Source: a bacterium
GTDB taxonomy: Bacteria; Babelota; Babeliae; Babelales; UASB340
Reading direction: 5' to 3'
Assembly: GCA_030629005.1 (NCBI GenBank)
Contig: DAOVPV010000002.1
Span: 67,932-131,931 of the forward strand
Length of the DNA stretch: 64,000 bases
Under the pieces are notes generated by a model. It saw only the letters and a list, made by a program, of their open reading frames with translations, searched no databases and had not been told where the DNA came from. Positions 10,746-61,245 of the stretch are shown piece by piece; the first letter of the stretch is position 1, and the number at the start of each line of letters is the position of its first letter. Made by a program: the position numbers and the translations under genes.

Positions 10746-12053
10746 ATGAAAAAAATATTATTTTTACTTTTATTTTTTATAACAACTAACTCTTCTATTT
10801 ATTCAAAAAATAATTGGTCATTTTTAATTTATATGGAAGCAGACAGCCAACTTGCGCCGTGGGTATTAAAAAACTTAACAGATGTTATCAGTGCCAAATT
10901 TGACCGTGAATTTGTGGATATTTTTATTCAGTGCCATATTGTAAAAGATTTTGCTTATAGATATAAAGTTAGCAGTAATTCCTTGGTTTATGACAGTACA
11001 GTTAAATTGACATCAGATAATTCAAAAGATTTGGTTGATGCTTCTGAATGGGCTTTTAAAAATACAAATTATCAGCACTATGGAATTATTTTATGGAATC
11101 ATGGATTTGGTATTTTGGATCCTAATTATATGGAACATAGTTTAGAAGAGTTTAATTGGGAGGCAGAGCCAGATTTAGATAGTTTTGTTTGTCCCGATGG
11201 TTTATGTCCTTTAAAATTTGATTATGGATCAAAAACATTAAATGTTTCTTCCGATAATTTTCATGGGCTAAGTCATAAAGGAACTTTGTTTAGAGAACAT
11301 AATAAAACTTATTTAACAAATCAGGGTATGGTGCAAGCATTTAGATCAATAAAACAAGAAATTCTAAATAATAAAAAGATAGATATTTTAGGAACGGATT
11401 GTTGTAAAATGGCAATGTTGGAAGTGGGATATCAGATAAAAGATTCTGTAAATTATTTTATTGGTTCTCAAAATTGCGAGTTACAAGATGGTTGGAATTA
11501 CAATGATTTTTTTAGTGATTTTATTAAAAATTTAACACCAGAAGAAGTTTGCATTTCTATAGTTGATTCTTATGGACAGTATTATAAAGAGCATACAAGA
11601 GAAGAAGCGTATACACTTTCTGCCTTTGGCTTGAATAATATAGATTTATTGGTGAATAATATTAATAAGTTTGTTGATGTTTATAAAAAGTGTTTAGAAT
11701 ATAATTTTGAATTTTTTAAAAATGTTATAAAAAATGCTCGTTCAAAATCTTTGGCAATTTGCCAAGCGCCATTTTATACAGGTATAGATTCATTTTATAC
11801 CCAATTATTGTTGGAGTTAGATAGCAGTGTTAGTTATTATTATAGATTGAGAGAGTTAAGACAAATTTTAAATACAGGCAAAGAGATTGTAAAAAATATT
11901 GTTGTTGCCAATGTTACGGGAGAAAATAAAACCGAAGCAAAGGGTATATCTTTTTATTTTCCAAATAATCATATAGATAGTTCTTATTTAGAAACTCAAT
12001 TTGCAAAGGATACTTTGTGGATTGAGTTTCTAGAACAAGTTACAGCGGTGTAA
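10746..12053 (+). CDS. Secreted clostripain-like cysteine peptidase (C11-family-like)
   Basis: Signal peptide MKKILFLLLFFITTNSSIYS follows a GGAGA Shine-Dalgarno. WSFLIYMEADSQL, ILWNHGFG (candidate catalytic His) and LGTDCCKMAMLEV (candidate catalytic Cys) resemble the C11 His/Cys dyad context. The ORF-track start at 10644 is probably over-extended. Confidence 0.55.
   Translation: MKKILFLLLFFITTNSSIYSKNNWSFLIYMEADSQLAPWVLKNLTDVISAKFDREFVDIFIQCHIVKDFAYRYKVSSNSLVYDSTVKLTSDNSKDLVDASEWAFKNTNYQHYGIILWNHGFGILDPNYMEHSLEEFNWEAEPDLDSFVCPDGLCPLKFDYGSKTLNVSSDNFHGLSHKGTLFREHNKTYLTNQGMVQAFRSIKQEILNNKKIDILGTDCCKMAMLEVGYQIKDSVNYFIGSQNCELQDGWNYNDFFSDFIKNLTPEEVCISIVDSYGQYYKEHTREEAYTLSAFGLNNIDLLVNNINKFVDVYKKCLEYNFEFFKNVIKNARSKSLAICQAPFYTGIDSFYTQLLLELDSSVSYYYRLRELRQILNTGKEIVKNIVVANVTGENKTEAKGISFYFPNNHIDSSYLETQFAKDTLWIEFLEQVTAV
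11234..11255 (-). repeat. Dispersed motif copy 1 (exact), inside the C11-peptidase-like ORF
   Basis: AACATTAAATGTTTCTTCCGAT on the + strand, read in frame as TLNVSSD. The exact identity to copy 2 extends to 30 bp (to 11263). Confidence 0.9.
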
Positions 12054-21712: not shown

Positions 21713-22516
21713 TTACTTTTTGGCTGCTTCTTTTGCTTTTTTTAACACGTTTATAACATATGTATGCTTGTTCTTTTCAGCAATCATTAAAGCAGTCCAG
21801 CCGTCTCTCCTTTTTATGTCCAAGTCAGCTTTGCCAGCAATTAAGGCTTTTAATATATCCACATGCCCGTTCAGTGCAGCAATCATTAAAGCAGTCCAGC
21901 CGTCTTTCATTGTTGCGTCCAAGTCAGCTTTGCTTTCAATTAAGGCTATTACAACCTCCACATGCCCGTTCTGTGCAGCAAGCATTAAAGCAGTCCAGCC
22001 GTCAGAATTTTTTATGTCCAAGTCAGCTTTGCCAGCAATTAAGGCTTTTACAACCTCCACATGCCCATTGATTGCAGCAAGCCCTAAAGCAGTCCTGCCT
22101 CTGTTATCTTTTTTATTAATATTTTTTATATTAAACTTGTATGCCTCTAACCATTTATTAAAAATATCTTGCTTTAAGGCGTCAATATTTTTATAAACTC
22201 CATTTGTTAATAGTTGATTCTGCCAAATGGTTACGTTTTCAATAATAAAAGCCGAACATGAAGGTAGTGTTAAGCTACCAATAGAAAGAGAGCCATTAAT
22301 TTGAATATTCTTTAATTTTACAATAACTCTTTCAGCAATGTCACATTCAGAAAAGACCAATGGACCTTTTATAGGTAAATCGTTAATTTCAAATTTTTCA
22401 TAACTTTTCTTCGAAGATAAATCTATATTGTTAAATGATTTATTAACAAGTAAAATATTTAATATTAAGAAAGACAAAATTTTGTAATTTGTAGATTTAA
22501 ACATAAAAGACCTCAT
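21713..22516 (-). CDS. Secreted ankyrin-repeat protein (about 4 ANK repeats)
   Basis: N-terminal hydrophobic signal-like segment. Repeats of the form GWTALM.AA.NGHVEVV.ALI..KADLD. Confidence 0.9.
   Translation of the reverse strand: MRSFMFKSTNYKILSFLILNILLVNKSFNNIDLSSKKSYEKFEINDLPIKGPLVFSECDIAERVIVKLKNIQINGSLSIGSLTLPSCSAFIIENVTIWQNQLLTNGVYKNIDALKQDIFNKWLEAYKFNIKNINKKDNRGRTALGLAAINGHVEVVKALIAGKADLDIKNSDGWTALMLAAQNGHVEVVIALIESKADLDATMKDGWTALMIAALNGHVDILKALIAGKADLDIKRRDGWTALMIAEKNKHTYVINVLKKAKEAAKK
21752..22108 (-). repeat. 99-bp tandem coding repeats (ankyrin units)
   Basis: ATCATTAAAGCAGTCCAGCCGTC recurs at 21783, 21882 and (one mismatch) 21981, an exact 99-bp period. Confidence 0.9.
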
Positions 22517-25057: not shown

Positions 25058-26029
25058 ATGAATAGTGTTCTTTTGTTTAGAAAAAGCTTATTAATATTGT
25101 TTATTGGGCTTTGTTCCAATGTTTATATTAGTGCTAGCCAGCAAAGTGGAAATTTGCAAAATTCGGTTTTACCTTTTTTAAGCAATATTGTTCAGGCAAT
25201 GAATTCTCAACAGCAAGCGCAAAAAATAGATGATAATCGTAAAGAGAATCTACCTAAAAAAGAAGTTATACATTTTATTTCCAGTGATAATATTTTGCCT
25301 AAAAATTATTTTATTCAAGGTAGAAGTTTTTATATTGATTTAGATATTTTAAAAAGTTCCGAAGAATCTCAAGTGAATGCTTGTTCTAATATCAGTTGTA
25401 TGAATGAAATATTTAATTTAGCAAGTAAATTAAAAGAAAATGGGACTATTGATAAAATTGTTGTTAATGCTTCCATGCCATTTTATACATACAATGAATA
25501 TAGGCAGCCTGGTTTATTTAATATAATAAATAAAGATATTTTATATAAAGCTGAAATAGAAAAAATAGATCCTATCTATGTGGAGTATTTGGGAAAAATT
25601 ACAAATTTAATTTTAGATTCATCTGTTGATGTTATTGTTTATAAAAATGAAGATGTTAAATATGAGCATAATGTTATTCAAGCTTCGGACAATCATATGT
25701 TGCATGTATTTATGGTGGAGTCAGAAGACGATTTCTTGAGTTTCAGTGAAGAATTAAATGTTGGGACAAGAGATTTAACAGAACTTACTGTATATCCATA
25801 TACATTCCGTATTAATCTTTTTCATTATTTTCCTCCTACAACTGATTACGAAACTGTTACTATAGAGACAAGTGCTGTGGCGGCAGATTTAACTTTGAAC
25901 AATGCATTAAATGTTGCTATAAATGATACTATTGATATAAAAACAGAGGGGATTGATTCTATAAGTGCTAAATTAGTATATCCAATAACAGGTGATCTTG
26001 TAAAATTACAAGTTCAAGGTGTAATGTAA
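25058..26029 (+). CDS. Hypothetical secreted protein
   Basis: Signal-peptide-like LLILFIGLCSNVYISA. AGAGGAGA Shine-Dalgarno. Motif copy 5 lies 17 nt upstream of the ATG. Confidence 0.5.
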   Translation: MNSVLLFRKSLLILFIGLCSNVYISASQQSGNLQNSVLPFLSNIVQAMNSQQQAQKIDDNRKENLPKKEVIHFISSDNILPKNYFIQGRSFYIDLDILKSSEESQVNACSNISCMNEIFNLASKLKENGTIDKIVVNASMPFYTYNEYRQPGLFNIINKDILYKAEIEKIDPIYVEYLGKITNLILDSSVDVIVYKNEDVKYEHNVIQASDNHMLHVFMVESEDDFLSFSEELNVGTRDLTELTVYPYTFRINLFHYFPPTTDYETVTIETSAVAADLTLNNALNVAINDTIDIKTEGIDSISAKLVYPITGDLVKLQVQGVM

Positions 26030-26495: not shown

Positions 26496-28508
26496 CTAAT
26501 TCATAGATTTTATAAATTTAAAGAATTTTTCTTCATCCTTTGGAGTAAGTTTTGATTGTTCTACAGACATCCAGTCATTGTGTCTTTTTTCTGCAAATCT
26601 AGAGAATTTATTAAACCAAACACCGTGGTTATGTTCTAATTTTTTATTAATACGTTTAAAATTTTTTGGTGTTTTTATTTTGGAAAGCATTAGTGCTGAT
26701 AAATGATTAGCGTATATTTTTTTTGATAGAAGCCATTTTTGATGTATGTTAAATTCGGAGTTAAAGGTTAATAATTGTAATGGATTGTCTTTAGAGCTTA
26801 GCCCACTATAAAGTCCTGTATAAAACCAATTGGTAGATATATTTGGAGCGTAACATCCTATAATTCCATTTTCAATTTTATTATTAACTATATTTTTTAT
26901 TTTTTTACCAATATTAATAGCTTGATTTTTTAGAAATTTAAAATATAGGTTTGATTCTTTATTTTTTATTAGATCATTTATGTTTGTTCTTCCGAATTTT
27001 TTTATATTTTCTAAGTTAAAACCTGTGGTATCTAAAAAATTGCTGGAAGTTTTTCTGCAATACATTTCTAAATCTAGTACAATACCTGATATTTTTATAT
27101 TGTTGTTAACATTTGGTTCTTGCCATTTATCTAGGAATTTATTTAAAGGGTTTAAAACTTCTTGATTCCAAAAGCTATTATCTATTGGGTTTGGTATGTC
27201 TCTATATATATTTTTGTATATATCTACGGCATGTTTTTTAGGTAAATTTGGTTCATATAAGTTATTTGCGATTTCAAATCCAATTAAAATTTTAGGTCTT
27301 TTAATATTTAATTTTTGGCACGATTTGTTTAGTTTTTTTGTGAATAGGCTTATTGATTTTATAAATACATTTGTTTTTGATTTTTTCTTTGCTATTGGGC
27401 TATAGTACATCTGTGGATTTAATGTTATCCATAATGTTAATCCTGGGCTAGATTTCGTGATGCTATTTATAAGTTTATCTTGTGCATTTATGGCGGCAGA
27501 ATCTGTTTTTTCGAATATATTCATATCAAGCCAGGCTACTTTTTTAAGATGAGCTGCTTTTTTTGTTTCAATTTTGTTTCCCATATTTTTAATATGGCTT
27601 GGTAGTTTTGATATTTTGATATTTTTAAGTTTAGTGTAATCAATAACATTAAATGTTTCTTCCGATTTACTATTGTTATTATTAAAAATATATTTTAGTT
27701 CTGTTAGCATTATTAGCACATTTTTATGAATGTTTTTTCTTAATTCAAAATTTGTAGGGCAAAAATGAAAATTTTCTGATATTCCAGAAAATGATAGCAA
27801 AGAATTGCTTGTTATAAATATAGAATTATTATTTTTTAACCAATATATACCGTATGGGGTTAGTGAGTTAATGTTATCATGTTTTATAGAATTTATCGGT
27901 AAAGTTGTAAAAGAATTGGTGTTTATATTTTGAGTATTTTTGGTAATTTTATGAGTTGCTTCAGATAATGTTGTTTCGTAATTTCCTCTTTTTGATTCGA
28001 ATGGAACATTTAAATAATTATTAATAATTTTAAATTCCATTGAGTTTACTATGTTTCCTTTTTCAATAAAACCATTTACAGACATGTTTATATTTAGACA
28101 GTTGAATAATGGTGCAAATAATAAAAGCTTATTTTTTATATTATGATTGTTTATTGGTGGTAGCATAAAGCTAATTAATTTATTTTTATTTTGAGCAAAG
28201 TTTTTTAGTAATTTTAAAAATTTTATAGAGACTTGAGATCTTGTTGCGATTCCTTTTAAAAATTCGATTCCTGTAATAAAAAATATGCCATCATAGTCTG
28301 TACTATTTAAGTATTCTTCTTCATCTAAAATATCTGCAATAGATTTGTAATCTATTTTAAAACCGGCAGTATTTGCTAGTTCTACAAAACTATTATATTT
28401 GTATATTTCTGTATTATTTGTATCTATTAAAGCAATATTTATGGTTTTACAATTTGTTTTAACTGAGTATAAAAATACAAAAAATAGAAAAAATATGAAT
28501 TTTTTCAT
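26496..28508 (-). CDS. Large hypothetical secreted protein (670 aa)
   Basis: Signal peptide MKKFIFFLFFVFLYSV. No confident family assignment. Carries motif copy 6 in frame (SEETFNV). Confidence 0.5.
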   Translation of the reverse strand: MKKFIFFLFFVFLYSVKTNCKTINIALIDTNNTEIYKYNSFVELANTAGFKIDYKSIADILDEEEYLNSTDYDGIFFITGIEFLKGIATRSQVSIKFLKLLKNFAQNKNKLISFMLPPINNHNIKNKLLLFAPLFNCLNINMSVNGFIEKGNIVNSMEFKIINNYLNVPFESKRGNYETTLSEATHKITKNTQNINTNSFTTLPINSIKHDNINSLTPYGIYWLKNNNSIFITSNSLLSFSGISENFHFCPTNFELRKNIHKNVLIMLTELKYIFNNNNSKSEETFNVIDYTKLKNIKISKLPSHIKNMGNKIETKKAAHLKKVAWLDMNIFEKTDSAAINAQDKLINSITKSSPGLTLWITLNPQMYYSPIAKKKSKTNVFIKSISLFTKKLNKSCQKLNIKRPKILIGFEIANNLYEPNLPKKHAVDIYKNIYRDIPNPIDNSFWNQEVLNPLNKFLDKWQEPNVNNNIKISGIVLDLEMYCRKTSSNFLDTTGFNLENIKKFGRTNINDLIKNKESNLYFKFLKNQAINIGKKIKNIVNNKIENGIIGCYAPNISTNWFYTGLYSGLSSKDNPLQLLTFNSEFNIHQKWLLSKKIYANHLSALMLSKIKTPKNFKRINKKLEHNHGVWFNKFSRFAEKRHNDWMSVEQSKLTPKDEEKFFKFIKSMN
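27645..27666 (-). repeat. Dispersed motif copy 6 (exact), inside ORF 26496..28508
   Basis: Read in frame on the minus strand as SEETFNV at about residue 282. Confidence 0.9.
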
Positions 28509-28702: not shown

Positions 28703-31303
28703 TTAAATCCTAGGATCTTTAGCGTTTAGAATTTTGTTTGTATGATTTTCTTTTTTTTCATTTTGATTCTTTTTAAACCTAGATTTTTTTGTATTGTTTG
28801 TTTCTGCTTTACCTTCAGTGTTTTTTGCACTAAGTGTTTTTTTTGCAAGTGTATGTTTTACAAATAAAGAATTTATGTTGCTATATTTATGTTCTAATAA
28901 TTTTTTATTAGTTGTTTTTTTTCTGTGATCTTTTTTTAAAATATTAGTAATATTTATATTTCGGTGTAGTTTTTTTCCTGGAGGTTCTATTTTTTCAGGT
29001 GATTTAATTATTTCTTCTTTTTTTATTTTGGGAACACGGTTTTTTGTATTGTTTTGTTTTATAATAATAGCATCTTTATGTGGAGTTCCCTTTATTTTAG
29101 ATTTATCTACTATTCTAAAGTATGGATCATATTTAATATTAACCTCTTTGGGTTGATTTTTACAAGATGAGTAGTCGTCTATTGGTCGGAGCATTCCTAT
29201 TTTTGCATCAGCAATTTTTTGTTTTACGGTTTGCTTACTTGGTCTAAAAAACCATCGTTGTATTGGGTCTTTATCTTTTATATAAGTATCACTATCTAGA
29301 ATTTGGTGTTTTGCAAAATCTAGTTTTAATTGAGTATATTCGTCTAATACGCCTTCAAATCTAGGTTTTATTATGCTTGGTCTTATAAAGATATAAAGAT
29401 TACTTTTTTCTTTTAAATTTTTTTTAGTTTTAAACAAATTTCCTATAATTGGTATATCTCCTAAAACAGGAACTTTATATACATCTTCAACATGTTTATT
29501 TTTAGTTAAACCGCCAAGAATTAAAACTTCTCCAGTTCCAACATTCACTTTTGTTTCTAATTTTCTTACTGTGGAATTTGGCGATGTTTGATCATCTTCT
29601 TGGAATTCTTCAACATCTACAAATATTCTTAGATCAACAGTTCCGTTTAAGTTTACCTTTGGTGTTAATCTAACAGATGTTGGAGCTTGTTTAGTCTCTT
29701 TGTCTCGTAAAAAGCCCGTAGCTGCAGATTTAGAAGACATTGAGCCTTTTACTTGTCTTTCTATTGTGAAGTCAACTTGGCATTCCTGGTTATTGTTTGT
29801 TGTTATATATGGTTGAATAATAACATTATAATTTTCTTGTTCTAATATTGCTTTTACAATACCCCAAAGATTTGTTGTATGTCCAAATGTTATATTTGTA
29901 CCTGTATTTGCATCTTTTCTTATTAGAGAGGTAGAATCAGCAGCTCCTGCTCCGATTAAATCAATTCGTGTGTCTGGGGCTGCAGATGGTGCAGTATTTA
30001 GTGCCGTCATAAATTGTATATCTGTATTTACGCCTAAATTACCTATTTTTTTAGGTTTAAACTGAGACCAAAGTTCATTATCATTTTTTGTTGTGATATC
30101 TACAACCATTATTTCAAAGGCTACTTGAGGCTGAGGTTTATCTATGTTGTCTATTAATCGTTCTAAACGTTTCCAGTCTTCATTACCGCAGGATATAATT
30201 AATCTATTTCCCCCTCCTCCACTTTCTGAAACTGTAGAGGAATCTATTTCTATTAATACATCTTCGAAAAATTTATATTCACCAACCTGTAATGCTTTAT
30301 TTATTCCTACAGGTGGTTGTATTATATTTTTGAGTAATGGTTTTAAGTTTTCTGCTTTTGCATATTTTAATTCTTTTATATGTATTCGTGACTTTGCTTT
30401 ATCAATTGGTATATCTACATATTTATGAATAAAATCTATTATTTTGGTTAGGTTTTTTTCTAAACCCAAAAGTATTAATGCATTACGTCTTGGTTCAGTA
30501 ATTATTTGGGTATCTTGAGAAAAATATGTGGCTTGTTTTTTATTGGCTTGAGCGAGCAAGAACCGTAAATCTTTTTGTTGTTCTGAGGGAACAATTTCTT
30601 TAAATATTTTTGCAACATCTTCGGCTATAGCATATTTTAAATGGATTATTTTTATAGATTCTCTAAGTCCGCCTTGATCTAATTCTGTAATTATTTTCAT
30701 TGCAGACTTTATAAATAAAGAACGCTCTGTAATTATAAGGGCATTTAAGCTAGGATTAGTTTGGACCTGGCCTTCTAGCATTTGAGATAAAAATTGTGCG
30801 ACTGTATCAGCTTTAATATTTTTTAAAAAATATATAAATCTTATAACTTCGTCATTTTTTGGAAGTTGTTCAGGTTCGATTCCAGAAAATATAGGTAAGG
30901 GTTCTTGTTTATTTTGTCCTTTTGCAACTATTCTGTATAAGCCATCAACATTTATTATTGTGTGCCCATTTACTTCTAACATTGTTAGAAGTAAATCCCA
31001 TGTTTTTGTTAGAGTTAATGGTTCTTTTGTTGTTAGAGATATTTTAATATTTTCTAAACTTTTGTTTGGGATAAAGTTTATTTTTTTTTCTTCACAGATA
31101 TAGTTTATTACACTAGATAAATTAGCATTTTCGAAGTTAAGATAAATATTAGCTTCTTCTTTGTGTGAGCTATTTATTGTATTTGAATGACTTTGTATAA
31201 AATTACTATCTTGGTTCCGAGTGTAAGTTTTTTTATCTATAAATAGAAAAATTGTAACTAATAAAAAATAGATTAAGTTATGTTTTTTTAGTTGTTTTAT
31301 CAT
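28703..31303 (-). CDS. Secretin, GspD/PilQ family (secretin 2), with a long lysine-rich C-terminal extension
   Basis: N0-like start YLNFENANLSSVINYICEEKKINFIP...IKISL. Secretin C-domain signature VPVLGDIPIIGNLFK...NLYIFIRPSII. 866 aa. Confidence 0.85.
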   Translation of the reverse strand: MIKQLKKHNLIYFLLVTIFLFIDKKTYTRNQDSNFIQSHSNTINSSHKEEANIYLNFENANLSSVINYICEEKKINFIPNKSLENIKISLTTKEPLTLTKTWDLLLTMLEVNGHTIINVDGLYRIVAKGQNKQEPLPIFSGIEPEQLPKNDEVIRFIYFLKNIKADTVAQFLSQMLEGQVQTNPSLNALIITERSLFIKSAMKIITELDQGGLRESIKIIHLKYAIAEDVAKIFKEIVPSEQQKDLRFLLAQANKKQATYFSQDTQIITEPRRNALILLGLEKNLTKIIDFIHKYVDIPIDKAKSRIHIKELKYAKAENLKPLLKNIIQPPVGINKALQVGEYKFFEDVLIEIDSSTVSESGGGGNRLIISCGNEDWKRLERLIDNIDKPQPQVAFEIMVVDITTKNDNELWSQFKPKKIGNLGVNTDIQFMTALNTAPSAAPDTRIDLIGAGAADSTSLIRKDANTGTNITFGHTTNLWGIVKAILEQENYNVIIQPYITTNNNQECQVDFTIERQVKGSMSSKSAATGFLRDKETKQAPTSVRLTPKVNLNGTVDLRIFVDVEEFQEDDQTSPNSTVRKLETKVNVGTGEVLILGGLTKNKHVEDVYKVPVLGDIPIIGNLFKTKKNLKEKSNLYIFIRPSIIKPRFEGVLDEYTQLKLDFAKHQILDSDTYIKDKDPIQRWFFRPSKQTVKQKIADAKIGMLRPIDDYSSCKNQPKEVNIKYDPYFRIVDKSKIKGTPHKDAIIIKQNNTKNRVPKIKKEEIIKSPEKIEPPGKKLHRNINITNILKKDHRKKTTNKKLLEHKYSNINSLFVKHTLAKKTLSAKNTEGKAETNNTKKSRFKKNQNEKKENHTNKILNAKDPRI

Positions 31304-31319
31304 TTATAGACTCCAACTG

Positions 31320-31865
31320 TTATTTTTTTAATCTTTTTGTTGCTAAATTAATATCAAACATTATTTTATTGTTTTCTTGTTTTTTTATAACAAGATCTTT
31401 TATATATACTATTTCTTTTGTACCTACTTCTTCCAGTATTTTTACAAGATTTTCTGTTGTTTGATCTTTAAATGTTGCTTTTAAAGTAACTTCGTCAAAT
31501 TTATTTGTACCACTAAGTTCTTGTATTACCGGTTCCCAATCAGGTTCTGGCGGAATAGATTGCTCTTTGCATAGTTGTTCAAAATATATATTAAGATCGA
31601 AATCTTTTTCTTGTTCAAGTAATTTTTGCAGTTTTTCTTCAGCTATTAACATTTTTTCATTTGTTTTAATAAGTTCAAATGTTTTTGCAGATAATGTTTT
31701 GGTGTTTTTTATTTGCATAATAAGGTCTTCGTTTTTGGAATAAAATAGAAAGCTAATTGAAAACGCAGCAATAACTATAAATAGAATTGTTAACTTTAAA
31801 TTTTTTTCGAATTCCTTTTTTGATAAACTTTCTATTTTATTGGTAAAATCGTATATTATTTTCAT
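31320..31865 (-). CDS. PilO/GspM-like bitopic inner-membrane assembly protein
   Basis: Single TM (LTILFIVIAAFSISFLFY), a coiled-coil segment, then a small alpha/beta C-domain. Its position between the pilMN-like gene and a secretin supports the call, which rests on context and architecture only. ATG 31865 is preferred over 31871. Confidence 0.45.
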   Translation of the reverse strand: MKIIYDFTNKIESLSKKEFEKNLKLTILFIVIAAFSISFLFYSKNEDLIMQIKNTKTLSAKTFELIKTNEKMLIAEEKLQKLLEQEKDFDLNIYFEQLCKEQSIPPEPDWEPVIQELSGTNKFDEVTLKATFKDQTTENLVKILEEVGTKEIVYIKDLVIKKQENNKIMFDINLATKRLKK

Positions 31866-31866
31866 A

Positions 31867-31888
31867 AACATTAAATGCTTCTTCCGAT
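31867..31888 (-). repeat. Dispersed motif copy 7 (one mismatch), in the intercistronic gap between the pilMN-like stop and the pilO-like start
   Basis: AACATTAAATGCTTCTTCCGAT occupies 22 nt between the stop at 31891 and ATG 31865. Confidence 0.85.
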
Positions 31889-31890
31889 TT

Positions 31891-33558
31891 TTATTCTTTT
31901 AATTTTAATTTGGCTGTAAATCTAATTCCTTGAAACCCTGTGTCTTCATATGGTTTTGGATCTAATCCAGTTTGTGGATCCCAAGGTTTTAATATTTTGG
32001 ATTCTTCAAATCTTTTTTCTAACTCTTTGAAATACGCGAAGTGATCATTTCCTGTTTTTGATCGAAATATTGCTTCGACTTCTATTTTTGCAATTTCATC
32101 TTCTTCGTATATAGAAATTTCTTCTACTGTTATGTCAAATTGACGTTTATCCATTATATTTGTTAATTCTTCTAATATTGTTAGAGCTTTAAATTTGGTA
32201 TTTTCAAATGTTCCCCACATTTCAAGTTTTTCAGATACTATTCGTCCGGCTTTATTTATTAAAGCTTTAAAAGTTAAATTTTTTGGCAATTTATATTCTT
32301 TTGGAAAGATTTTTAAAATTTTTTGTTTTTCAGTATTTTCAATTTCTTTTTTTTGATTTGATAGATTATATAATCGTATTGAGCCTATAATTAATATACT
32401 TAAGAATATAAAAGATGTAAGAATTATAGATGTTATTAATTGTTTCAATAGTATTTTATTTTGTTTTGACTCTAAAGCCTTTCTTCTTAAGTTGAAGCTA
32501 ATAAATGTTTCGGACTGTATTATGGAGGCTAATGGTACTATATATTTATTCCAATCTATTTTGTTTTTTTCAGTTTGATTAATAAAATAATTATTATTAA
32601 ATATTTTATTACAATCTAAGGTTTCACAATTAATTTGCAATAAATTTGTACCATAGTCATCTAAATTTTTTAAATGAGAATATCGTCCGGAAAAGACTAT
32701 TTTTCCTATAGCCCTTTTTTGACTAAGCTTTAGAGAAAATGAATTTAGTGTAAATTGTATATCATTAAAAAAGTCAAAAAAATATTTTTGTGAAATTTTA
32801 TTATAATTTTCATCTGTTGATTCAGATAAACCAAGTTTTAATATTTGTTCATTTATTTTTTCTGCAGAGGTATTCATATCTTTGGCGATATTTTTGATAA
32901 TATTTTGTAAACCCTTAGATAAAACTCTGGTGAACTTTATTACATTATTTTCTATTAATACGATTCTTGTGGATGTTAAACCGATATCTATGATAGCGCT
33001 TGGTTTTTTTATATTTTTATATTCTGCAATTTGATTATATAGGTCAAATATAGAAAAGAGGTCCAGAGTTATTTTTGTAGGGTCTATTCCTGCTTTTTCG
33101 TATATATTTAAAATAGGTTCGACATCTTTATTTCTTACAGCAGCAACCAAGATATTTGTTTTTTTTTCACTCTTATTTTGTGATGTTATAATAAAATCTA
33201 TAGTAGATTCTTGTAGTGAAAATGGTAATTGAGATTCTATTTCGTAATCAAGGACCATTTTAATTTTGTCTTCTTCTAAAAATGGTATTTCTATTTCTTT
33301 TAAAATTACATAGTTTGTAGGAATTGTGATGTAAGCTTGGTCAAATTTGCCGATTTCTGTTTTTAAATTTAAGAGAGTTTCTTGTTTACCTCCTAAAGGA
33401 AAAGGTCTTGTTATTGCTTTTTTTATTACAATTTGGTTTCTAGAAGCAAATGCCTTTATACAATAAATATTGTTTTCGTCAATATAAAAACTTGCTATTG
33501 TTTGAGAATAAAGTCTCTTTTTATTAATAAATTCTGGTAGGAAAATTTGTTTAATCAT
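31891..33558 (-). CDS. PilM-PilN fusion (GspL-like): cytoplasmic actin-like domain, TM segment, periplasmic domain
   Basis: PilM-like features (VLDYEIESQLPF, ILVAAV, IDIGLTSTRIVLIENN, GLQNI), a TM segment LITSIILTSFIFLSILIIGSI, and a C-terminal periplasmic domain. The ATGA overlap with the upstream secretin stop suggests translational coupling. Confidence 0.65.
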   Translation of the reverse strand: MIKQIFLPEFINKKRLYSQTIASFYIDENNIYCIKAFASRNQIVIKKAITRPFPLGGKQETLLNLKTEIGKFDQAYITIPTNYVILKEIEIPFLEEDKIKMVLDYEIESQLPFSLQESTIDFIITSQNKSEKKTNILVAAVRNKDVEPILNIYEKAGIDPTKITLDLFSIFDLYNQIAEYKNIKKPSAIIDIGLTSTRIVLIENNVIKFTRVLSKGLQNIIKNIAKDMNTSAEKINEQILKLGLSESTDENYNKISQKYFFDFFNDIQFTLNSFSLKLSQKRAIGKIVFSGRYSHLKNLDDYGTNLLQINCETLDCNKIFNNNYFINQTEKNKIDWNKYIVPLASIIQSETFISFNLRRKALESKQNKILLKQLITSIILTSFIFLSILIIGSIRLYNLSNQKKEIENTEKQKILKIFPKEYKLPKNLTFKALINKAGRIVSEKLEMWGTFENTKFKALTILEELTNIMDKRQFDITVEEISIYEEDEIAKIEVEAIFRSKTGNDHFAYFKELEKRFEESKILKPWDPQTGLDPKPYEDTGFQGIRFTAKLKLKE

Positions 33559-36377
33559 GACAGCCTCCTTCTAGATTTTAAATTTTTAAGGCTGTTCTTT
33601 ATATTATATTTTTTATTTATACTTGTTTTAGTGTCGTTTATTTTTTCTTTTGTTGGATTATCTTCTGGAAAATTTTCGATGTCATCATCTCTGTCTGTAT
33701 GAACTCTATAATAAGGATCATTTTTTATATCTACTGTTGTTGGTTGGAATTTAGCGCTAGCAAAATCAGTTATTTTTTTACTGTAATTTGAGCTTTTTAT
33801 ATCAAAGAACCAAGAATCGATAGGGTCTTTGATTTTTTGATAACTTCCTATTCTTTCCATTGTGTCTTTAGCTTTATGTAGTTTCATTCTTGTGTAAAGA
33901 TTTACACCGGGAGTTGTTCGTGGTTTTATTATTGTTGGAGATATAAATATAAAGATATAATTTTTTAGCACAGAGACTTGTTTTCTTTTAAAAAACCATC
34001 CTAGTAATGGTATATCCCCTAATATTGGAGTTTTTTGAAAATTTTCGGTTGTTGATGTTTTTACAAAACCTCCAAGGGCTATAACTTGTCCATCTGCAAC
34101 AGTTACATCTGTTTTTATTTTTTTAATCTCTTTACTACCTTTGGTTGCGTTTATGAATTCATCTATATTAATTTCCAGAGTTAGCCTTATTATGCCATCA
34201 ACATTTATTTGTGGCGTGATATCTAATGTTGTTAATGCTTTTACTTCTTTATATCCTTGAAACCCTGTTGGATCAAAAAGGCCTGTTGGAGCACCCTCTT
34301 CCATAACAACGTTTTGAGTATTACCGTATTCCAAGTGACCTTTTGTTTTATTTGCTACTGTCATAAATGGTTGTGCTAAGATACTTGTATGAGATTGAGT
34401 ATTAAGCGCTTTAAATACTCCCCAAAGATTGGAGTCTTTTCCAAATGATATTATTGTTGAACCAAGGCCGCCGCTTACAGCGTTAATCATATTTCCTAAA
34501 AGATTTCGAGGATCTTCTGTACTGTAAACTATTGGACCATCGCCAGTAGCAGATTGATAATTTATGTTGCTACCAATTTGGCCTGATTTTTTATTTCTAA
34601 TACTGCCACCCAATTCTTTTCTGTCGTCAATTGCGATTGTTACAAATAAACTTTCTAGAGCGACTTGGGGTTGAGGTTTGTCTAAATCTTTTATTGTTTT
34701 TTTTAATAAGTTCCAATCTTGTTTATCTGTGGAAGAAACAATTAATCTATTTCCGTCTTTATCTACTTCAAATTTCATTGCTTTAAAATATTTTACACCA
34801 TCCCTTACTGCACCATATTTTGCAACTTGTTCGCCTATTGCAGAAACATCGGTTACGCTTTCTAATATTGTTTTTATCTGTTCTGCATCTGTATGTTGTA
34901 ATTCATAGATATGTAATGGGGATATTGTTTCTTTTAACTCCGTATCTAGATGTTCTGTTATAAATTCTACAATTTTATCGATAGATTGTTTTGTGCCTAA
35001 TAGCACTAGGGAGTTAGATCGTTCTATGACTATCATTCTTGTTGTTGGAGAAAAGTATTGTAAGTTTGCTTCTGCTTGTTTTCCCATTAATCTCGCAAGA
35101 GGACTTTGGTTTTCGGTTTTATTCATTAAACTTTCAAAAAGTGCTTTTACATCAGTTGCATTTATTCTTTTAAGTTTTACAACGGTAACGGTTTCTTGTA
35201 AGCCTGTTTGGTCTAGAGCATGAATCACCTTCATTGCAGATTTTATATTATAAGATTTGTCTGTAATTATAAGTCCATTAACTTCTGGGTATGGTATTAT
35301 ATTATGTTCTGGGCTTAACATGCTATTTAAAATGGGCTGTATACTTGTAACATCGACATTTTCTAGAAATGTTACATATCTTATATTTTCATCGCTGTCT
35401 GGTAATGTTTCTGCTGGAACGTTTATATATGCGGGTAATGGTTGTTTTGTTTTATTTGTTTTTGGCATAACTACATAAACATCGCCTATTTTGATTATGC
35501 TAAATCCTGACATTTCTAATACAGTTAAAAATACATTCCAGGCTTGTTCTATACTTAAGGCCTCTCTAATATTGAGAGATATTTTTACACCTTCTATGGC
35601 TTTATCAGGAATAAGATTTAAGTTTTTTATATCAGCGATATAAGCTATAAAATTAGATAATTCTGCGTTTTCAAAGTTAAGGTAAATATCTTTTTTTTCT
35701 GTGGTTTCTTTGGTTGTTAAATCTTTTTCTTGAGAATCTATTTCATCTGGAATATTAGCTATTTGTTTTTTTATTGTTTGTATGGAATCTGCTTTTTCTT
35801 CGCCTATTGCTTCTTCGGCTATTTCTTCTTTGTCTTCAGCTATTTCTTCTTTGTCTGAGGCTGTTTCTTCTTCTTCGTCTGAGGCTGTTTCTTCTTTGTC
35901 TTCGGCTATTTCTTCTTCTTCGTCTGAGGTTATTTCTTCTTTGTCTTCGGCTATTTCTTCTTCTTCGTCTGAGGTTATTTCTTCTTCGGCTTCGTCTAAG
36001 GTTGTTTCTTCTTCGACTGTGGCCGTTTCTTCTTCGTCTTCAACATCATCTTTTTCAGCTTCTATTATTGGTTTTTCAGGTTCTTGTTTTTTTGTGGCTT
36101 CTTCTTTGTCTTTGTTGTTGTTAGATATTTTAGATTGTTTTGGGATTTTATTTTGATTTTTATTATTAGTTGTTTCTGTTTTTGTTATAGTTTTTTCTTT
36201 GTTCCTGTTTTCTTTGTTACCAGAGGGTGTTTTAGTTTCTAAAGATATTTTTTTATTTATATTTTCTTCTTTATTTGGTGGTATTGCTGTGGTTGCATTT
36301 TTTTTTATTAGCTCTTGAGAGAATGTTGTTCCTGAGGTTAAGAACAAAAATAAAATTAAAAAATTTTTTTTATTCAT
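33555..36377 (-). CDS. Secretin, GspD/PilQ family (secretin 1), with an N-terminal acidic repeat region
   Basis: Signal peptide, D/E-rich repeats, N0-like YLNFENAELSNFIAYIADIKNLNLIP...VKISL, and the secretin signature TPILGDIPLLGWFFKRK...NYIFIFISPTII. 940 aa. Confidence 0.85.
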   Translation of the reverse strand: MNKKNFLILFLFLTSGTTFSQELIKKNATTAIPPNKEENINKKISLETKTPSGNKENRNKEKTITKTETTNNKNQNKIPKQSKISNNNKDKEEATKKQEPEKPIIEAEKDDVEDEEETATVEEETTLDEAEEEITSDEEEEIAEDKEEITSDEEEEIAEDKEETASDEEEETASDKEEIAEDKEEIAEEAIGEEKADSIQTIKKQIANIPDEIDSQEKDLTTKETTEKKDIYLNFENAELSNFIAYIADIKNLNLIPDKAIEGVKISLNIREALSIEQAWNVFLTVLEMSGFSIIKIGDVYVVMPKTNKTKQPLPAYINVPAETLPDSDENIRYVTFLENVDVTSIQPILNSMLSPEHNIIPYPEVNGLIITDKSYNIKSAMKVIHALDQTGLQETVTVVKLKRINATDVKALFESLMNKTENQSPLARLMGKQAEANLQYFSPTTRMIVIERSNSLVLLGTKQSIDKIVEFITEHLDTELKETISPLHIYELQHTDAEQIKTILESVTDVSAIGEQVAKYGAVRDGVKYFKAMKFEVDKDGNRLIVSSTDKQDWNLLKKTIKDLDKPQPQVALESLFVTIAIDDRKELGGSIRNKKSGQIGSNINYQSATGDGPIVYSTEDPRNLLGNMINAVSGGLGSTIISFGKDSNLWGVFKALNTQSHTSILAQPFMTVANKTKGHLEYGNTQNVVMEEGAPTGLFDPTGFQGYKEVKALTTLDITPQINVDGIIRLTLEINIDEFINATKGSKEIKKIKTDVTVADGQVIALGGFVKTSTTENFQKTPILGDIPLLGWFFKRKQVSVLKNYIFIFISPTIIKPRTTPGVNLYTRMKLHKAKDTMERIGSYQKIKDPIDSWFFDIKSSNYSKKITDFASAKFQPTTVDIKNDPYYRVHTDRDDDIENFPEDNPTKEKINDTKTSINKKYNIKNSLKNLKSRRRLS
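35808..35987 (-). repeat. 45-bp tandem coding repeat (about 4 units) encoding EEITSDEEEEIAEDK-type acidic units
   Basis: Protein reads EEITSDEEEEIAEDK EEITSDEEEEIAEDK EETASDEEEETASDK EEIAEDKEEIAEE. The DNA shows the matching period-45 repetition. Confidence 0.85.
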
Positions 36378-36399
36378 ATTTATTCCATTTATTAATTAT

Positions 36400-37542
36400 T
36401 TACCGTATTCTTCGGTTCATGGATCTTGCATTCATGCTTTGTAATATTCGTTTTTTTATATCTGTAATTATGTCTTCTTGTTTTGGTGTTCTATGTTGTT
36501 TTTCAAATTTTTTTATTTGTTTTGCTCTCTCTTGTTCCTTGCTTTGTTTTAGCATTTCACTTGTTGATGGAGCTTGTTCTTCTGATTCTGGTTCAGCAGG
36601 GCTTAAGAATATTTTTTTTATGGGTTTTTCTATTTTTTCTAATTTATAGTTTATTGTTATAAGATTGTTATTTCTTTTAAGGACAAGTTTAATTGTATTT
36701 CCAATCTTTGATTTAGTTATTTTATCAAAAATTTTTATTCTATTTTTATCTTGAGTTGTTTTTATATCACATATGTTTGTAAAAATATCCCCTTTTTTTA
36801 ATCCGGTTATATTTACAATTTCACTGTCGCATGAATTTCCGATTTTAAGTCCAATGAGTTTTCCATTTTCGTAAGCAGGAATTAAGGAATATTTTTCTAG
36901 AGCTTGTCCTAGAGATTTTACTCTTTTTATAAAAGCATCTGGATCAACTATAAAATTAATGTTGTCTATTTTTTTTATGGTGTATTCCCAAAAATTTGGC
37001 GTGGTTCTTCTTGTTGCATTTTCTTCTCTTAACAAATAGATTTCTTGTTGACCATTTGCTCTTAAAACAATGACTCTGTTTTTAGATATTTTTATTATTT
37101 GTCCATCTTTAAATAAATTACCAAGACGATATATTGATTCTTTATTTGTTTCATCCAAAATTAAAGCAATACTTTTTTCTTCGTTTAGAGATGAAATTAT
37201 CCCACTTAACTTAAGATTTAGTGAATCTATAAATGTAGGTTTTGCTGGTTCTGGGGGTATTGCTATTTGATGTGGTTCATATTCTGGGATAGGTGTTATT
37301 AAATCTTTTTTTGTAGGCTTAATTTTTGGTGTTGCGACATAGGTGTCAAACAAATCCTGTGTGTATATTTTTTCGATATCTAAAGGTTTTTGTTGAATTT
37401 CTTTTTCTTCAGGTCGTTTTTTTTCTATTAATTGTTTTTTTAACAGAACTCTTTTTTTTTCTAATAAATAAATATTTAATACTAGTGTAGTAATAAATAT
37501 TACTAAAAGAGAACTATTTAAAAGCCATAAAGATTGTTTCAT
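36400..37542 (-). CDS. GspC-like protein (TM, HR/PilP-like domain, PDZ-like domain)
   Basis: N-terminal TM. LKLSGIISSLNEEKSIALILDE...YRLGNLFKDGQIIKISKNRVIVLRANGQQEIYL fits the secretin-binding HR domain pattern. A PDZ-like GLKIGN...ITGLKKGDIF follows. Located directly upstream of a secretin. Confidence 0.6.
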   Translation of the reverse strand: MKQSLWLLNSSLLVIFITTLVLNIYLLEKKRVLLKKQLIEKKRPEEKEIQQKPLDIEKIYTQDLFDTYVATPKIKPTKKDLITPIPEYEPHQIAIPPEPAKPTFIDSLNLKLSGIISSLNEEKSIALILDETNKESIYRLGNLFKDGQIIKISKNRVIVLRANGQQEIYLLREENATRRTTPNFWEYTIKKIDNINFIVDPDAFIKRVKSLGQALEKYSLIPAYENGKLIGLKIGNSCDSEIVNITGLKKGDIFTNICDIKTTQDKNRIKIFDKITKSKIGNTIKLVLKRNNNLITINYKLEKIEKPIKKIFLSPAEPESEEQAPSTSEMLKQSKEQERAKQIKKFEKQHRTPKQEDIITDIKKRILQSMNARSMNRRIR

Positions 37543-37644
37543 AACTAAATCACCCTTCTGCAGAGAATGAAGATAATTTTCTTAATAGAGTTTTGTCAAG
37601 TAAATGTTCAAGAATTACTTTTTACCAATACTTTCCTAGACGCT

Positions 37645-38943
37645 TTAATTTTTAATGTTTATATTTAATTTTAATAGTTTATCTTTTAGCTGTACAGAGG
37701 TTAAATTTAAGTTATTAGAAGCTTGTTTAATATCGTATTTGTTTTTTTTTAGAAAGTATAATAAAAATTTTTTTTCAAAGTTGTTCATAGCTTCTGTTAA
37801 TGATTTAAAACTCGTAAAAGATTGCTCTTCTATCATTTCTATTTGGTTTTCTTCTAAATATTCAAAAATTTCAGCTTCACTTATTATTCCATTTTCATTT
37901 TTAAATGTCTTAATTACATATTGTATTAGTTTTTTTAATTCGCGTATATTTCCAAACCAATTTTTATTTCTTAATATTCGAATTGCTCTTGAATCAAAAA
38001 TGATATTTTTTTTGAGTTTGATATTTTCTGTTTTAATAAAGCTTTCGCACATTAATGGAATATCATATCGCCTTTTGTTTAAGGATGGTATTTCTAGAGG
38101 GGTAACATTAATTGTATGAAAAAGGACGCTATTGAATTTTTGTTTTTTTACTAATGACAAAAGAGGTTCTGTGCTAGACACAATTAATCTTTTGTTTTTG
38201 TCTTGAATCTTTTCTATGTTTATTAACAAGTTGCGTTGGCACTCTTTTGATATTTTATTTATGTATTTTATATAAATAATACCATTTTGCTTAGAATAAA
38301 ATTTGTTTGTTTTTTTTATTATATCCTGATCTTTTAGTTTTAAGCAGTTTATTGTAATTAGTTCATATTTTTTTAGAGAACCTTTTTGATGTATATATTT
38401 TACAAATAAGCTTTTACCTGTGCCGTGTTCTCCATATATTATTAATGGATAATCTAAGTTTAATATAAGATTTACTTGTTGTAGTAGTTCAAGGAAAAGA
38501 TAGCTATTTCCAATAATTCCAAGTTTATTTAGTAAGAACTTATCGGACTCTTGTTTTGTTTTATTTTGGATTGCTTGTTTTTCATTTAAAAAATTTATTT
38601 TTTTTAAAATTACATTTAGATTTAATGGTTTTTCGATAAAATCTAAGGCGCCTTTTTTTAAAGATTCTATCGCTATTGGAATGTTGCCAAAACCAGAAAT
38701 CATAAAGACTTTTTGAGCTGGAAATTCTTTTTTTATTTGTTCTAGTAGAGCCATTCCATTACAATTAGGCATAAAGATGTCTAAAAAAACTAAATCTGGA
38801 ATAAGTTTTCCTATATAATCTATTGTTTTATTCCCATCGCTTAGTGTTTCTACCTGATAACCTTCATCTTCTAAAATTTCTTTAAGGGTTTTTAATATAA
38901 ATGTTTCATCATCAATAACTAAAATTAATGGTTTGTGTTTCAT
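37645..38943 (-). CDS. NtrC-family response regulator (REC, degenerate AAA+, Fis-type HTH)
   Basis: The REC domain is intact (LVIDDE, FLDIFMP, ISGFG, EKP). Walker A GEHGTGKS is present, but the ESELFGHEKGAFTGA segment is missing and IYIKYI replaces the Walker B LFLDEI. C-terminal HTH (IKQASNNLNLTSVQLKDKL). Confidence 0.75.
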   Translation of the reverse strand: MKHKPLILVIDDETFILKTLKEILEDEGYQVETLSDGNKTIDYIGKLIPDLVFLDIFMPNCNGMALLEQIKKEFPAQKVFMISGFGNIPIAIESLKKGALDFIEKPLNLNVILKKINFLNEKQAIQNKTKQESDKFLLNKLGIIGNSYLFLELLQQVNLILNLDYPLIIYGEHGTGKSLFVKYIHQKGSLKKYELITINCLKLKDQDIIKKTNKFYSKQNGIIYIKYINKISKECQRNLLINIEKIQDKNKRLIVSSTEPLLSLVKKQKFNSVLFHTINVTPLEIPSLNKRRYDIPLMCESFIKTENIKLKKNIIFDSRAIRILRNKNWFGNIRELKKLIQYVIKTFKNENGIISEAEIFEYLEENQIEMIEEQSFTSFKSLTEAMNNFEKKFLLYFLKKNKYDIKQASNNLNLTSVQLKDKLLKLNINIKN

Positions 38944-44330: not shown

Positions 44331-44349
44331 AGTAAAGAAATTTTTATAA

Positions 44350-44428
44350 CTAGATTCTGGAACAAGTTTGGGATGACAAAGTGGAACGAACACTTGTCCT
44401 GTCATCCTAAATTTGTTTCAGGATCTAG
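44350..44428. repeat. Nested palindromic element, copy A (degenerate), about 79 bp
   Basis: Arms CTAGATTCTGGAACAAGTTTGGGATGACA (44350-44378) and TGTCATCCTAAATTTGTTTCAGGATCTAG (44400-44428) are imperfect reverse complements. Related to copies B and C. Confidence 0.75.
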
Positions 44429-44485
44429 TCCTAATTTTAACGTATAAATTTTTGCAGCTTATAATTAAACTCTAAGAGATTAAAT

Positions 44486-45316: not shown

Positions 45317-45351
45317 CTAGTTTTAGTCATACGATATAATTGAATTTTTAT

Positions 45352-45434
45352 TACTGGATCCTGAAACGAGTTCAGGATGACTGTGGGTATATAAATCATC
45401 TCATTTGTCGTCCTGAACTTGTTTCAGGATCCAG
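45352..45434. repeat. Nested palindromic element, copy B, 83 bp
   Basis: Arms ACTGGATCCTGAAACGAGTTCAGGATGAC (45352-45380) and GTCGTCCTGAACTTGTTTCAGGATCCAGT (45406-45434). Each arm contains its own ATCCTGAA-N5-TTCAGGAT hairpin. Confidence 0.85.
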
Positions 45435-45488
45435 TTTTATAAATCATATATCACGCTGTAAGCTGCGGGTAATCTAACCAAAATTGAA

Positions 45489-61000: not shown

Positions 61001-61082
61001 ATAATAATCTTTTAATAATCTTTAATTTTCTTAGAGGTTAATTTTGTAAATTATTGAGCAATGTTTGTATGAAAATTTTAAG

Positions 61083-61163
61083 ACTGGATCCTGAAACAAG
61101 TTCAGGATGACAATGTGAAATTTGTGCTAGGTATGTCATCCTGAACTTGTTTTAGAATCCAGT
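61083..61163. repeat. Nested palindromic element, copy C, 81 bp
   Basis: Arms ACTGGATCCTGAAACAAGTTCAGGATGACA (61083-61112) and TGTCATCCTGAACTTGTTTTAGAATCCAGT (61134-61163). Confidence 0.85.
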
Positions 61164-61245
61164 TATAAAGTTTTTTGTTTTTTAAAGTATAACAAAGTAT
61201 TTCAAGGATAAATAATTTTTTCAAGTAACCCCGCTTTTTGCCTTT

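Follow-up and report, generated by a model that had tools for sequence, protein, structure and literature searches.

Why does a single operon encode two outer-membrane secretins, when the secretin channels that have been well studied are homo-oligomers of one gene product and the mixing of paralogs is regarded as harmful? The question is raised by a five-gene operon at positions 28703-37542 (minus strand) of a 64,000-nt stretch of DNA (positions 67,932 to 131,931 of contig DAOVPV010000002.1, assembly GCA_030629005.1; 28.6% G+C), here called the window, from a bacterium of the Babelales in the Candidatus Dependentiae (TM6), a widespread phylum whose members have reduced genomes and live as obligate parasites of protists. 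The presence of two gspD genes in all TM6 genomes was reported by Yeoh et al. in 2016 (PMC4776705), who proposed that one of them may have replaced pilQ and termed the matter "an open question"; two gspD copies have been known since then, and hence the phenomenon itself is not a discovery of this work. The literature searched contained no description of an operon in which the two gspD genes flank gspL/M-like genes, nor of a shared C-terminal motif, of variants with three or four secretin modules or of a tandem fusion, and the operon layout, the shared motif and the fusions appear to be undescribed. The operon probably encodes the outer-membrane channel and the inner-membrane alignment part of a type II secretion system (T2SS)- or type IV filament-like machine of the Dependentiae, in which both secretins would be served by one GspC/L/M platform.

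The locus had been read in an earlier note on this DNA, made from the sequence alone, as five co-directional genes with tiny gaps or overlaps: a gspC-like gene, a secretin gene, a pilM-pilN fusion, a pilO/gspM-like gene and a second secretin gene. All five open reading frames (ORFs) were recovered on one strand at exactly the coordinates given there, and their features are as follows:

36400-37542, minus strand: gspC-like gene (380 aa) with an N-terminal membrane anchor, an HR-type T2SSC domain, a PDZ-like region and a charged C-terminal tail.
33555-36377, minus strand: secretin 1 (940 aa), the upstream or U-type secretin, with a signal peptide, a low-complexity N-terminus of ~200 aa, N0, three Secretin_N domains, the secretin domain and a C-terminal extension.
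35812-36041, minus strand: acidic 15-aa tandem repeat in the low-complexity N-terminal region of secretin 1, detected by Tandem Repeats Finder (TRF).
33702-33830, minus strand: C-terminal extension of secretin 1 (aa 850-892, KDPIDSWFF ... DIKNDPYYRV), from alignment with the extension of secretin 2.
31891-33558, minus strand: gene of GspL architecture (555 aa), with a PilM-type actin-like cytoplasmic domain, a hydrophobic segment at about aa 373-395 and a C-terminal (periplasmic) region of ~160 aa.
31320-31871, minus strand: PilO/GspM-like bitopic protein (183 aa), from its predicted fold.
28703-31303, minus strand: secretin 2 (866 aa), the downstream or D-type secretin, with N0, N1-N3, the secretin domain, the S-helix, a C-terminal extension and a K-rich disordered tail.
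29114-29275, minus strand: C-terminal extension of secretin 2 (aa 677-730, KDKDPIQRWFF ... NIKYDPYFRI), modelled as short helices.
28706-29113, minus strand: K-rich disordered tail of secretin 2, of low pLDDT and lineage-specific.

The gspC-like gene and secretin 1 are separated by 22 nt, the gspL-like gene and the 183-aa gene by 19 nt, and the 183-aa gene and secretin 2 by 16 nt, while the stop codon of secretin 1 and the start codon of the gspL-like gene share a 4-nt ATGA overlap at 33555-33558, which was read directly in the sequence; the tight packing claimed for the operon is thus confirmed in each detail. The third residue of the 183-aa protein, M3, is nearly invariant across orthologues, and the true start of this gene is therefore probably its third codon, at 31865. 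No terminator-like hairpin was found on the minus strand inside the operon, and a search of Rfam gave no match within it. The gene identifications proposed for all five ORFs were supported by Pfam and NCBIfam profiles and, for the 183-aa protein, by the predicted fold.

All of the best homologues of secretin 2 belong to Candidatus Dependentiae (TM6, Babeliales). Sampling of one genome per GTDB species yielded 68 loci, 37 of which span the whole region, and in 37/37 of these the order gspC - secretin - gspL-like - (gspM-like) - secretin is kept on one strand, so that the dual-secretin operon for which a survey of related genomes had been suggested is present in every spanning locus; the same operon was found in two further loci obtained from protein look-ups (L001 and L003). 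The first gene of the operon is gspC in all loci, and no more than one gspC, one gspL-like and one gspM-like gene were found per operon. At the junction of the U-type secretin with the gspL-like gene the median distance is -4 nt, with overlap in 44 of 53 loci, and the gaps at the remaining junctions have medians between 2 and 13 nt. The arrangement recurs in independent assemblies from NCBI, JGI, ENA and Logan. The earlier note had held that its reading would fall if this were a common and already characterized arrangement such as two adjacent independent systems; the arrangement is indeed common, and two gspD copies have been in print since 2016, but it has not been characterized and does not consist of adjacent independent systems. 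The 68 loci, all with this operon, come from records titled as Dependentiae/Babeliales metagenome-assembled genomes (MAGs) or bearing generic titles ("uncultured Pseudomonadota", "bacterium"). Many of the GTDB-representative MAGs that carry the operon (L008, L010, L012-L015 and others) are titled "uncultured Pseudomonadota bacterium", a label that is probably generic or mistaken.

Both large proteins are secretins, as had been claimed from their N0-type start and secretin domain, and neither lacks the secretin domain. In secretin 1, Pfam N0 (residues 233-301), Secretin_N in three stretches and Secretin (residues 657-818) all scored above their cut-offs, as did N0 (55-125), Secretin_N and Secretin (488-646) in secretin 2; the Secretin domain (PF00263, cut-off 27.5 bits) was matched at 4e-31 and 108.3 bits by secretin 1 and at 1e-34 and 120 bits by secretin 2. 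The two proteins are 35% identical over 725 aa, in an alignment that continues through the C-terminal extension. TIGR02517 (GspD) is the top NCBIfam model for both, with 278.9 bits for secretin 1 (7.8e-83, residues 233-819) and 283.7 bits for secretin 2 (2.9e-84). Neither score reaches the equivalog cut-off of 351.35 bits, indicating that both proteins are divergent relatives of GspD rather than equivalogs. The PilQ model TIGR02515 gave 140.6 and 131.4 bits for secretins 1 and 2, short of its cut-off of 284.35, and the NCBIfam models for SctC, MshL and HofQ likewise rank well behind TIGR02517 for both. No Pfam domain, AMIN included, was detected ahead of N0 in either secretin. Each has the GspD-type architecture of N0, three Secretin_N domains corresponding to N1-N3, the secretin domain and an S-domain helix. 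In profile searches against solved structures, secretin 2 aligned over residues 49-663 with 5zdh (1.4e-42) and 5wq7, and its AlphaFold2 (AF2) model has canonical N0 and N1-N3 domains, a beta-barrel and an S-helix, with PulD (6hcg, 2.6e-37) as the best Foldseek match and PulD, GspD, ExeD and EpsD as the top matches.

The solved GspD sequences align with secretin 2 only to about residue 663-666. Past this point both secretins carry the common non-canonical extension described beforehand, and that observation was not only borne out but extended, as motif 1 of the extension, (R/K)DP(I/V)xxWFF in the form RDPIxRWFF, is kept in both paralogs phylum-wide, in the main and the divergent clades alike; E. 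coli GspD has no counterpart of it. Residues D679, P680, R683, W684, F685 and F686 of secretin 2 are invariant in 15 orthologues, and among 80 orthologues P680 and F686 remain invariant while the other four motif residues are at least 90% conserved; D851, P852 and F858 of secretin 1 are at least 90% conserved in both paralog families. The second motif (DPYYR) is present in both secretins of the window, as had been noted, but is restricted to the main clade. In the AF2 model of secretin 2, residues 673-712 form several short helices of moderate confidence (pLDDT 65-83 for the extension). The occurrence of RDPIxRWFF in both paralogs suggests a shared partner or a shared targeting route. The K-rich tail of secretin 2 (residues 751-866, pLDDT <50) and the acidic repeat of secretin 1 (TRF period 45 nt, 5.1 copies, 84% matches) are both present, as reported earlier, but neither is conserved among orthologues: the region ahead of N0 ranges from 44 to 230 aa among secretin 1 orthologues, and D-type orthologues have tails of 0 to 179 aa. 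To judge from these widely varying lengths of the low-complexity ends among genomes, both are lineage-specific decorations.

The two secretins are products of a very old duplication. The best 150 matches of the representative search were of Dependentiae type only, and a neighbor-joining tree was computed for 107 Dependentiae secretins, E. coli GspD being the sole outgroup. In this tree the secretins from the upstream position form one clade, which includes a deeply divergent lineage (L062-L071), and those from the downstream position fall outside the U clade in two groups. Across clades, U-type secretins are more alike among themselves than U is to D in 98.5-100% of column bootstraps. This identity pattern and the monophyly of the U type across the main and divergent clades place the duplication at about the age of the deepest split in the genome sample, and nothing points to concerted evolution between the paralogs. 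Per-domain identity among orthologues is 0.42-0.57 for the U type and 0.39-0.53 for the D type; because conservation of the two is similar in every domain, neither copy is decaying, and both have been kept under purifying selection or constraint in every genome examined. The paralogs are most alike in N0 (0.42), which fits a single shared GspC partner, and least alike in the S-helix (0.23), whose identity within each type is 0.42 and 0.53.

The number of secretin modules per locus varies from two to four, the larger numbers occurring in L064 and L073. A Babeliales MAG (L064:2738-12196) has three secretin genes, two of them of the upstream type before the gspL-like gene, and the extra upstream-type secretin is without the RDPIxRWFF motif. 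In L073, a contig of 41% G+C, the genes gspC, U-type secretin, gspL-like, gspM-like and D-type secretin are followed by a 1491-aa ORF (L073:10001-14476; JGI sample 2140918012, contig00016) that consists of two complete GspD-type units in tandem, joined by a Pro/Ala/Gln-rich linker of ~70 aa; both modules are D-type, giving four secretin modules in the locus. A signal peptide is present on the first unit only and so speaks for a genuine fusion over a missed stop codon, in what is so far one contig from one sample.

The proteins encoded between and before the secretins were assigned with differing strength. The 380-aa protein matched Pfam T2SSC (1.2e-8, 35.3 bits against a cut-off of 27) and, in NCBIfam, GspC_delta (1.9e-19, covering residues 39-301) and TIGR01713 (4.5e-16), with the NCBIfam equivalog cut-offs for GspC not reached (70.5 versus 150). 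A weak HtrA-type PDZ match at residues 244-303, and a weak PDZ_6 match on an orthologue, place a PDZ-type C-terminal domain behind the above-threshold HR/T2SSC domain, as in GspC. The 555-aa protein matched Pfam PilM_2 at residues 72-321 (2.5e-23, 83 bits against 27) and T2SSL (1.5e-4), NCBIfam pilM (1.7e-28) and Amuc_1101_fam (3.7e-18), and, in profile searches of the PDB, PilM 3jc8_Ma (1.4e-28) and PilM-PilN 5eou (3e-19). Only residues ~18-354 match PilM, and these are followed by a hydrophobic segment and ~160 residues. These C-terminal 160 residues matched neither PilN nor the periplasmic domain of GspL in PDB profile search or hhalign, and an hhalign comparison of the GspL-like family with E. 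coli GspL showed only a weak N-terminal match (probability 9%). The protein would thus be built like GspL or like a PilM-PilN fusion; the PilM part of the fusion proposed earlier is well founded, and its PilN half is assigned from architecture only.

The 183-aa protein gave nothing meaningful in Pfam or NCBIfam; its profile search against PDB sequences returned only PilN at E = 0.2, and hhalign against E. coli GspM returned nothing. An AF2 model built from an alignment of 18 homologues (pLDDT 86.8) opens with a long N-terminal helix, in which the hydrophobic segment lies, and continues as a ferredoxin-like alpha/beta domain. Foldseek matched this model best to PilO, both in the Myxococcus type IVa pilus (T4aP) model (3jc8_Oa, 2.6e-5) and in Pseudomonas (2rjz_A, 3.7e-4, target TM-score [TMt] 0.65), and also to Akkermansia Amuc_1100 (6kny); the match to the periplasmic domain of Vibrio EpsM/GspM (1uv7, TMt 0.68) is weak (E ~0.04). 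By predicted fold only, the protein belongs to the PilO/GspM class, in agreement with the initial call.

Taken as a whole, the operon resembles several known systems without coinciding with any of them. With the canonical T2SS (E. coli, Klebsiella Pul, Vibrio Eps) it shares a GspC with HR and PDZ domains, secretins of N0-N1-N2-N3-secretin-S architecture that align full length to solved GspD/PulD, a bitopic protein of GspL architecture together with a small bitopic protein of GspM/PilO fold, and the placement of gspC directly before gspD, as in E. coli K-12. It differs from that system in having two gspD paralogs (three or four in some lineages) that flank gspL/M, in that gspE, F, G-K and O are unlinked, in a GspL-like cytoplasmic domain that is nearer to PilM than to GspL, and in secretins that carry the RDPIxRWFF motif, which is not in E. 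coli GspD, and fall short of the NCBIfam equivalog cut-offs. The T4aP cluster pilMNOPQ of Pseudomonas and Myxococcus likewise has a PilM-type actin-like domain, a PilO-like fold and a 3'-terminal secretin (M-N-O-...-Q); in the Dependentiae, however, PilM and the putative PilN equivalent are fused, a GspC with PDZ stands in place of the PilP lipoprotein, the secretin is of GspD type without AMIN, and a second secretin lies upstream. A third likeness is to the Amuc_1098-Amuc_1102 cluster of Akkermansia muciniphila, which also encodes a long fused PilM-like protein (the Amuc_1101_fam match above), a small PilO-like protein (Amuc_1100) and a large secretin (Amuc_1098_fam, 1e-12 to 1e-17, C-terminal part), although the NCBIfam scores are far below the family cut-offs. 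The Akkermansia cluster has one secretin and, to our knowledge, no annotated GspC.

By homology to the T2SS and the type IV pilus (T4P), the GspC-like protein with its HR and PDZ domains, the PilM-type protein of GspL architecture and the PilO/GspM-like protein would form one inner-membrane platform. This platform would dock through the HR domain of GspC onto the N0 domains of the GspD-type secretins, a contact proposed because GspC and GspD are known to interact, for example in the PulD-PulS-PulC HR complex 6hcg. Both secretins would be needed, each in a non-redundant role, and would work with the single GspC/L/M set, and the ATPase, the platform protein and the (pseudo)pilins would be supplied from elsewhere in the genome. 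Sec-dependent host-interaction proteins, such as ankyrin proteins bearing signal peptides, are the probable cargo exported across the outer membrane, and the window itself encodes an ankyrin protein with a signal-peptide-like N-terminus, of the kind expected to leave by this route. According to Deeg et al. (PMC6561590), signal peptides are found on 44% of Chromulinavorax coding sequences and on 78% of its ankyrin proteins, and Pagnier et al. (2015) detected type II as the only secretion system of any type in Babela; since the literature reports no other recognizable secretion system in the Dependentiae, this T2SS-type machine is the likely exit route for their many Sec-dependent host-manipulating proteins.

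The downstream half (pilM/N-like, pilO-like, secretin) resembles the gene order pilMNO(P)Q and the upstream half the order gspC-gspD, as would be expected if one gspD copy had taken over from pilQ and the operon served both a T2SS and a T4P. This is the proposal of Yeoh et al. (PMC4776705), who found pilQ absent and two gspD copies present in all TM6 genomes, and components of both T2SS and T4P have been reported in the TM6 core genome. We nevertheless regard a replacement of pilQ as rather doubtful, given that one adaptor set serves the two secretins with no PilP or second GspC found, and that both secretins are of GspD type (279 and 284 bits with TIGR02517 versus 141 and 131 with the PilQ model), without AMIN before N0, and are each other's paralogs with a private common motif; in addition, Babela micrographs are without pili (Yeoh et al., PMC4776705) and a single secretion system was detected in that organism (Pagnier et al. 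2015). A single machine type is accordingly our preferred reading, favored by N0 being the domain most alike in the two paralogs, by the lone set of adaptors and by the C-terminal motif common to both secretins, and two independent machines are thought unlikely. Several observations do weigh against a single machine. The paralogs differ most in the S-helix, the part that touches the neighboring subunit in solved GspD rings, and this could mean that two separate channels with different tasks have become insulated from each other. The cross-clade orthology of the D type is statistically weak (column bootstraps of 97.5% and 57%), and a second, separate T4P machine may borrow one of the secretins; both Yeoh et al. 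(PMC4776705) and Deeg et al. (PMC6561590) mention type IV pilus assembly genes.

The earlier note had suggested a hetero-oligomeric or stacked channel, or two conduits that share one inner-membrane platform. If both secretins do belong to one machine type, U and D subunits could co-assemble into a mixed ring or form two populations of rings that use the same platform, and these two arrangements seem about equally probable. Duplicated subunits of homo-oligomers often become hetero-oligomers. Co-assembly of U and D subunits into a single outer-membrane channel on one GspC/L/M platform is a possibility to be held tentatively; it is consistent with the strict co-occurrence and tight coupling of the two genes within the operon in 37/37 genomes, with a common domain architecture and RDPIxRWFF motif that leave no obvious separate targeting determinant, with a module number that varies from two to four, and with the natural tandem fusion in L073, which puts two different modules side by side. 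That fusion, however, joins a D-type to a D-type module rather than U to D, and the strong divergence of the S-helix between U and D also speaks against mixing, as does the fact that all solved secretins are homo-oligomers, the matched T2SS structures having 15 chains. Hoang et al. (2011, PMC3230066) expressed the field's expectation that multimers of different secretins "would likely be nonfunctional" and that separate targeting routes serve to prevent them. More than one secretin paralog per genome is likewise found in P. aeruginosa (XcpQ, PscC, PilQ) and E. coli (GspD-alpha, GspD-beta), according to PMC3230066 and PMC10329019, but there each secretin is in its own cluster with its own targeting factors, which are thought to prevent mixing (PMC3230066), whereas in the Dependentiae both are in one operon with one adaptor set and a common C-terminal motif. 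Far less probable than any of these arrangements is that the second secretin is a redundant or decaying duplicate, that two independent systems happen to be adjacent, or that the locus is an assembly artefact: a secretin is split into two ORFs in a few loci (L017, L043, L044), which could be due to a frameshift or a pseudogene, but in the reduced genomes of the whole phylum both copies are intact and conserved to a like degree, the secretins are interleaved with single-copy gspL/M-like genes rather than arranged as two complete clusters, and the independent assemblies agree. The Dependentiae operon is thus a natural test case either for heteromeric secretin rings or for one platform serving two different pores. 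A mixed ring, which in some lineages would also take in the third and fourth modules with the fused tandem pair, would, if true, be the first natural heteromeric secretin and would overturn the view of mixed multimers as non-functional accidents. The synteny, the common motif and the fusion make the question "why two gspD?" sharper and directly testable, the phylum having cultivable members in Babela, Vermiphilus and Chromulinavorax.

The remaining parts of the machine are not in the neighborhood. Searches by phmmer with twelve E. coli K-12 Gsp proteins against the ORFs of the window (≥60 aa) and the 68 loci gave only GspD and weak GspC matches, and no GspE, GspF, pseudopilin (GspG) or prepilin peptidase was found by phmmer or regular expression within 10 kb of the operon in the 68 loci and the window. 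Pfam assigned only housekeeping functions to twenty large window ORFs, in keeping with the initial statement that the window has no ATPase, platform protein or pilin gene. The absence of E/F/G genes within 10 kb in 68 loci implies that the genes for motor and filament (those of the ATPase, platform protein and pilins or pseudopilins) as a rule lie elsewhere in Dependentiae genomes. The single match to a Walker-A expression proved to be the sigma-54 regulator. Three features bear on regulation of the operon:

37645-38943, minus strand: sigma-54-type response regulator of the NtrC/PilR class (Pfam Response_reg, Sigma54_activat and AAA_lid_14), a candidate regulator.
37570-37599, minus strand: best sigma-70-like promoter match upstream of gspC (TTGACA-18-TATCTT), a consensus match only.
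31867-31887, minus strand: copy of a dispersed 21-nt motif, TCGGAAGAAGCATTTAATGTT, between the stop codon of the gspL-like gene and the start of the 183-aa gene.

A sigma-54-type response regulator lies upstream of gspC in 20 of the 26 loci with enough flanking sequence, usually ~1.1 kb away. In loci of the L003 type, a MoxR-like AAA gene is directly upstream of gspC. A conserved sigma-54 promoter immediately upstream of gspC was considered and dropped, as the -24/-12 consensus occurs in only 2 of 44 loci. Promoter-like (sigma-70) and terminator-like sites were no commoner than in shuffled sequence.

The motif copy inside the operon, numbered 7 in the earlier note, was located at 31867-31887. 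The dispersed motif, TCGGAAGAAACATTTAATGTT, contains the palindrome AACAT-N3-ATGTT and has nine copies in the window (at 11234, 12674, 18221, 19337, 20541, 25020 [plus strand], 27645, 31867 and 45948) versus 0.01 expected, eight of the nine being on the minus strand. Four copies are 1-17 nt upstream of start codons and the rest are inside or beside ORFs; the copy in the 670-aa ORF reads SEETFNV. None of the 73 related loci has the motif, which is thus specific to this genome and was rejected as a candidate for a conserved promoter inside the operon. It may serve as a promoter element or bind a regulator, and its operon copy is a possible internal regulatory site.

Directly downstream of the operon are genes for a 670-aa protein (26496-28508, minus strand) and a 323-aa protein (25058-26029, plus strand), both with signal-peptide-like N-termini and no Pfam family; the 670-aa protein is kept in the closest relative (L001), though not generally. 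Three copies of a palindromic element of ~100 nt are found at 44339-44433, 45343-45444 and 61072-61174, in intergenic positions after genes; the arms of ~38-41 nt are 87-88% complementary around a loop of ~21-25 nt, and the elements, which have no Rfam match, could be terminators or resemble repetitive extragenic palindromic sequences or miniature inverted-repeat transposable elements. An ankyrin-repeat protein encoded at 21713-22516 (minus strand), with three 99-nt DNA repeats and a signal-peptide-like N-terminus, is a candidate Sec-dependent secreted effector.

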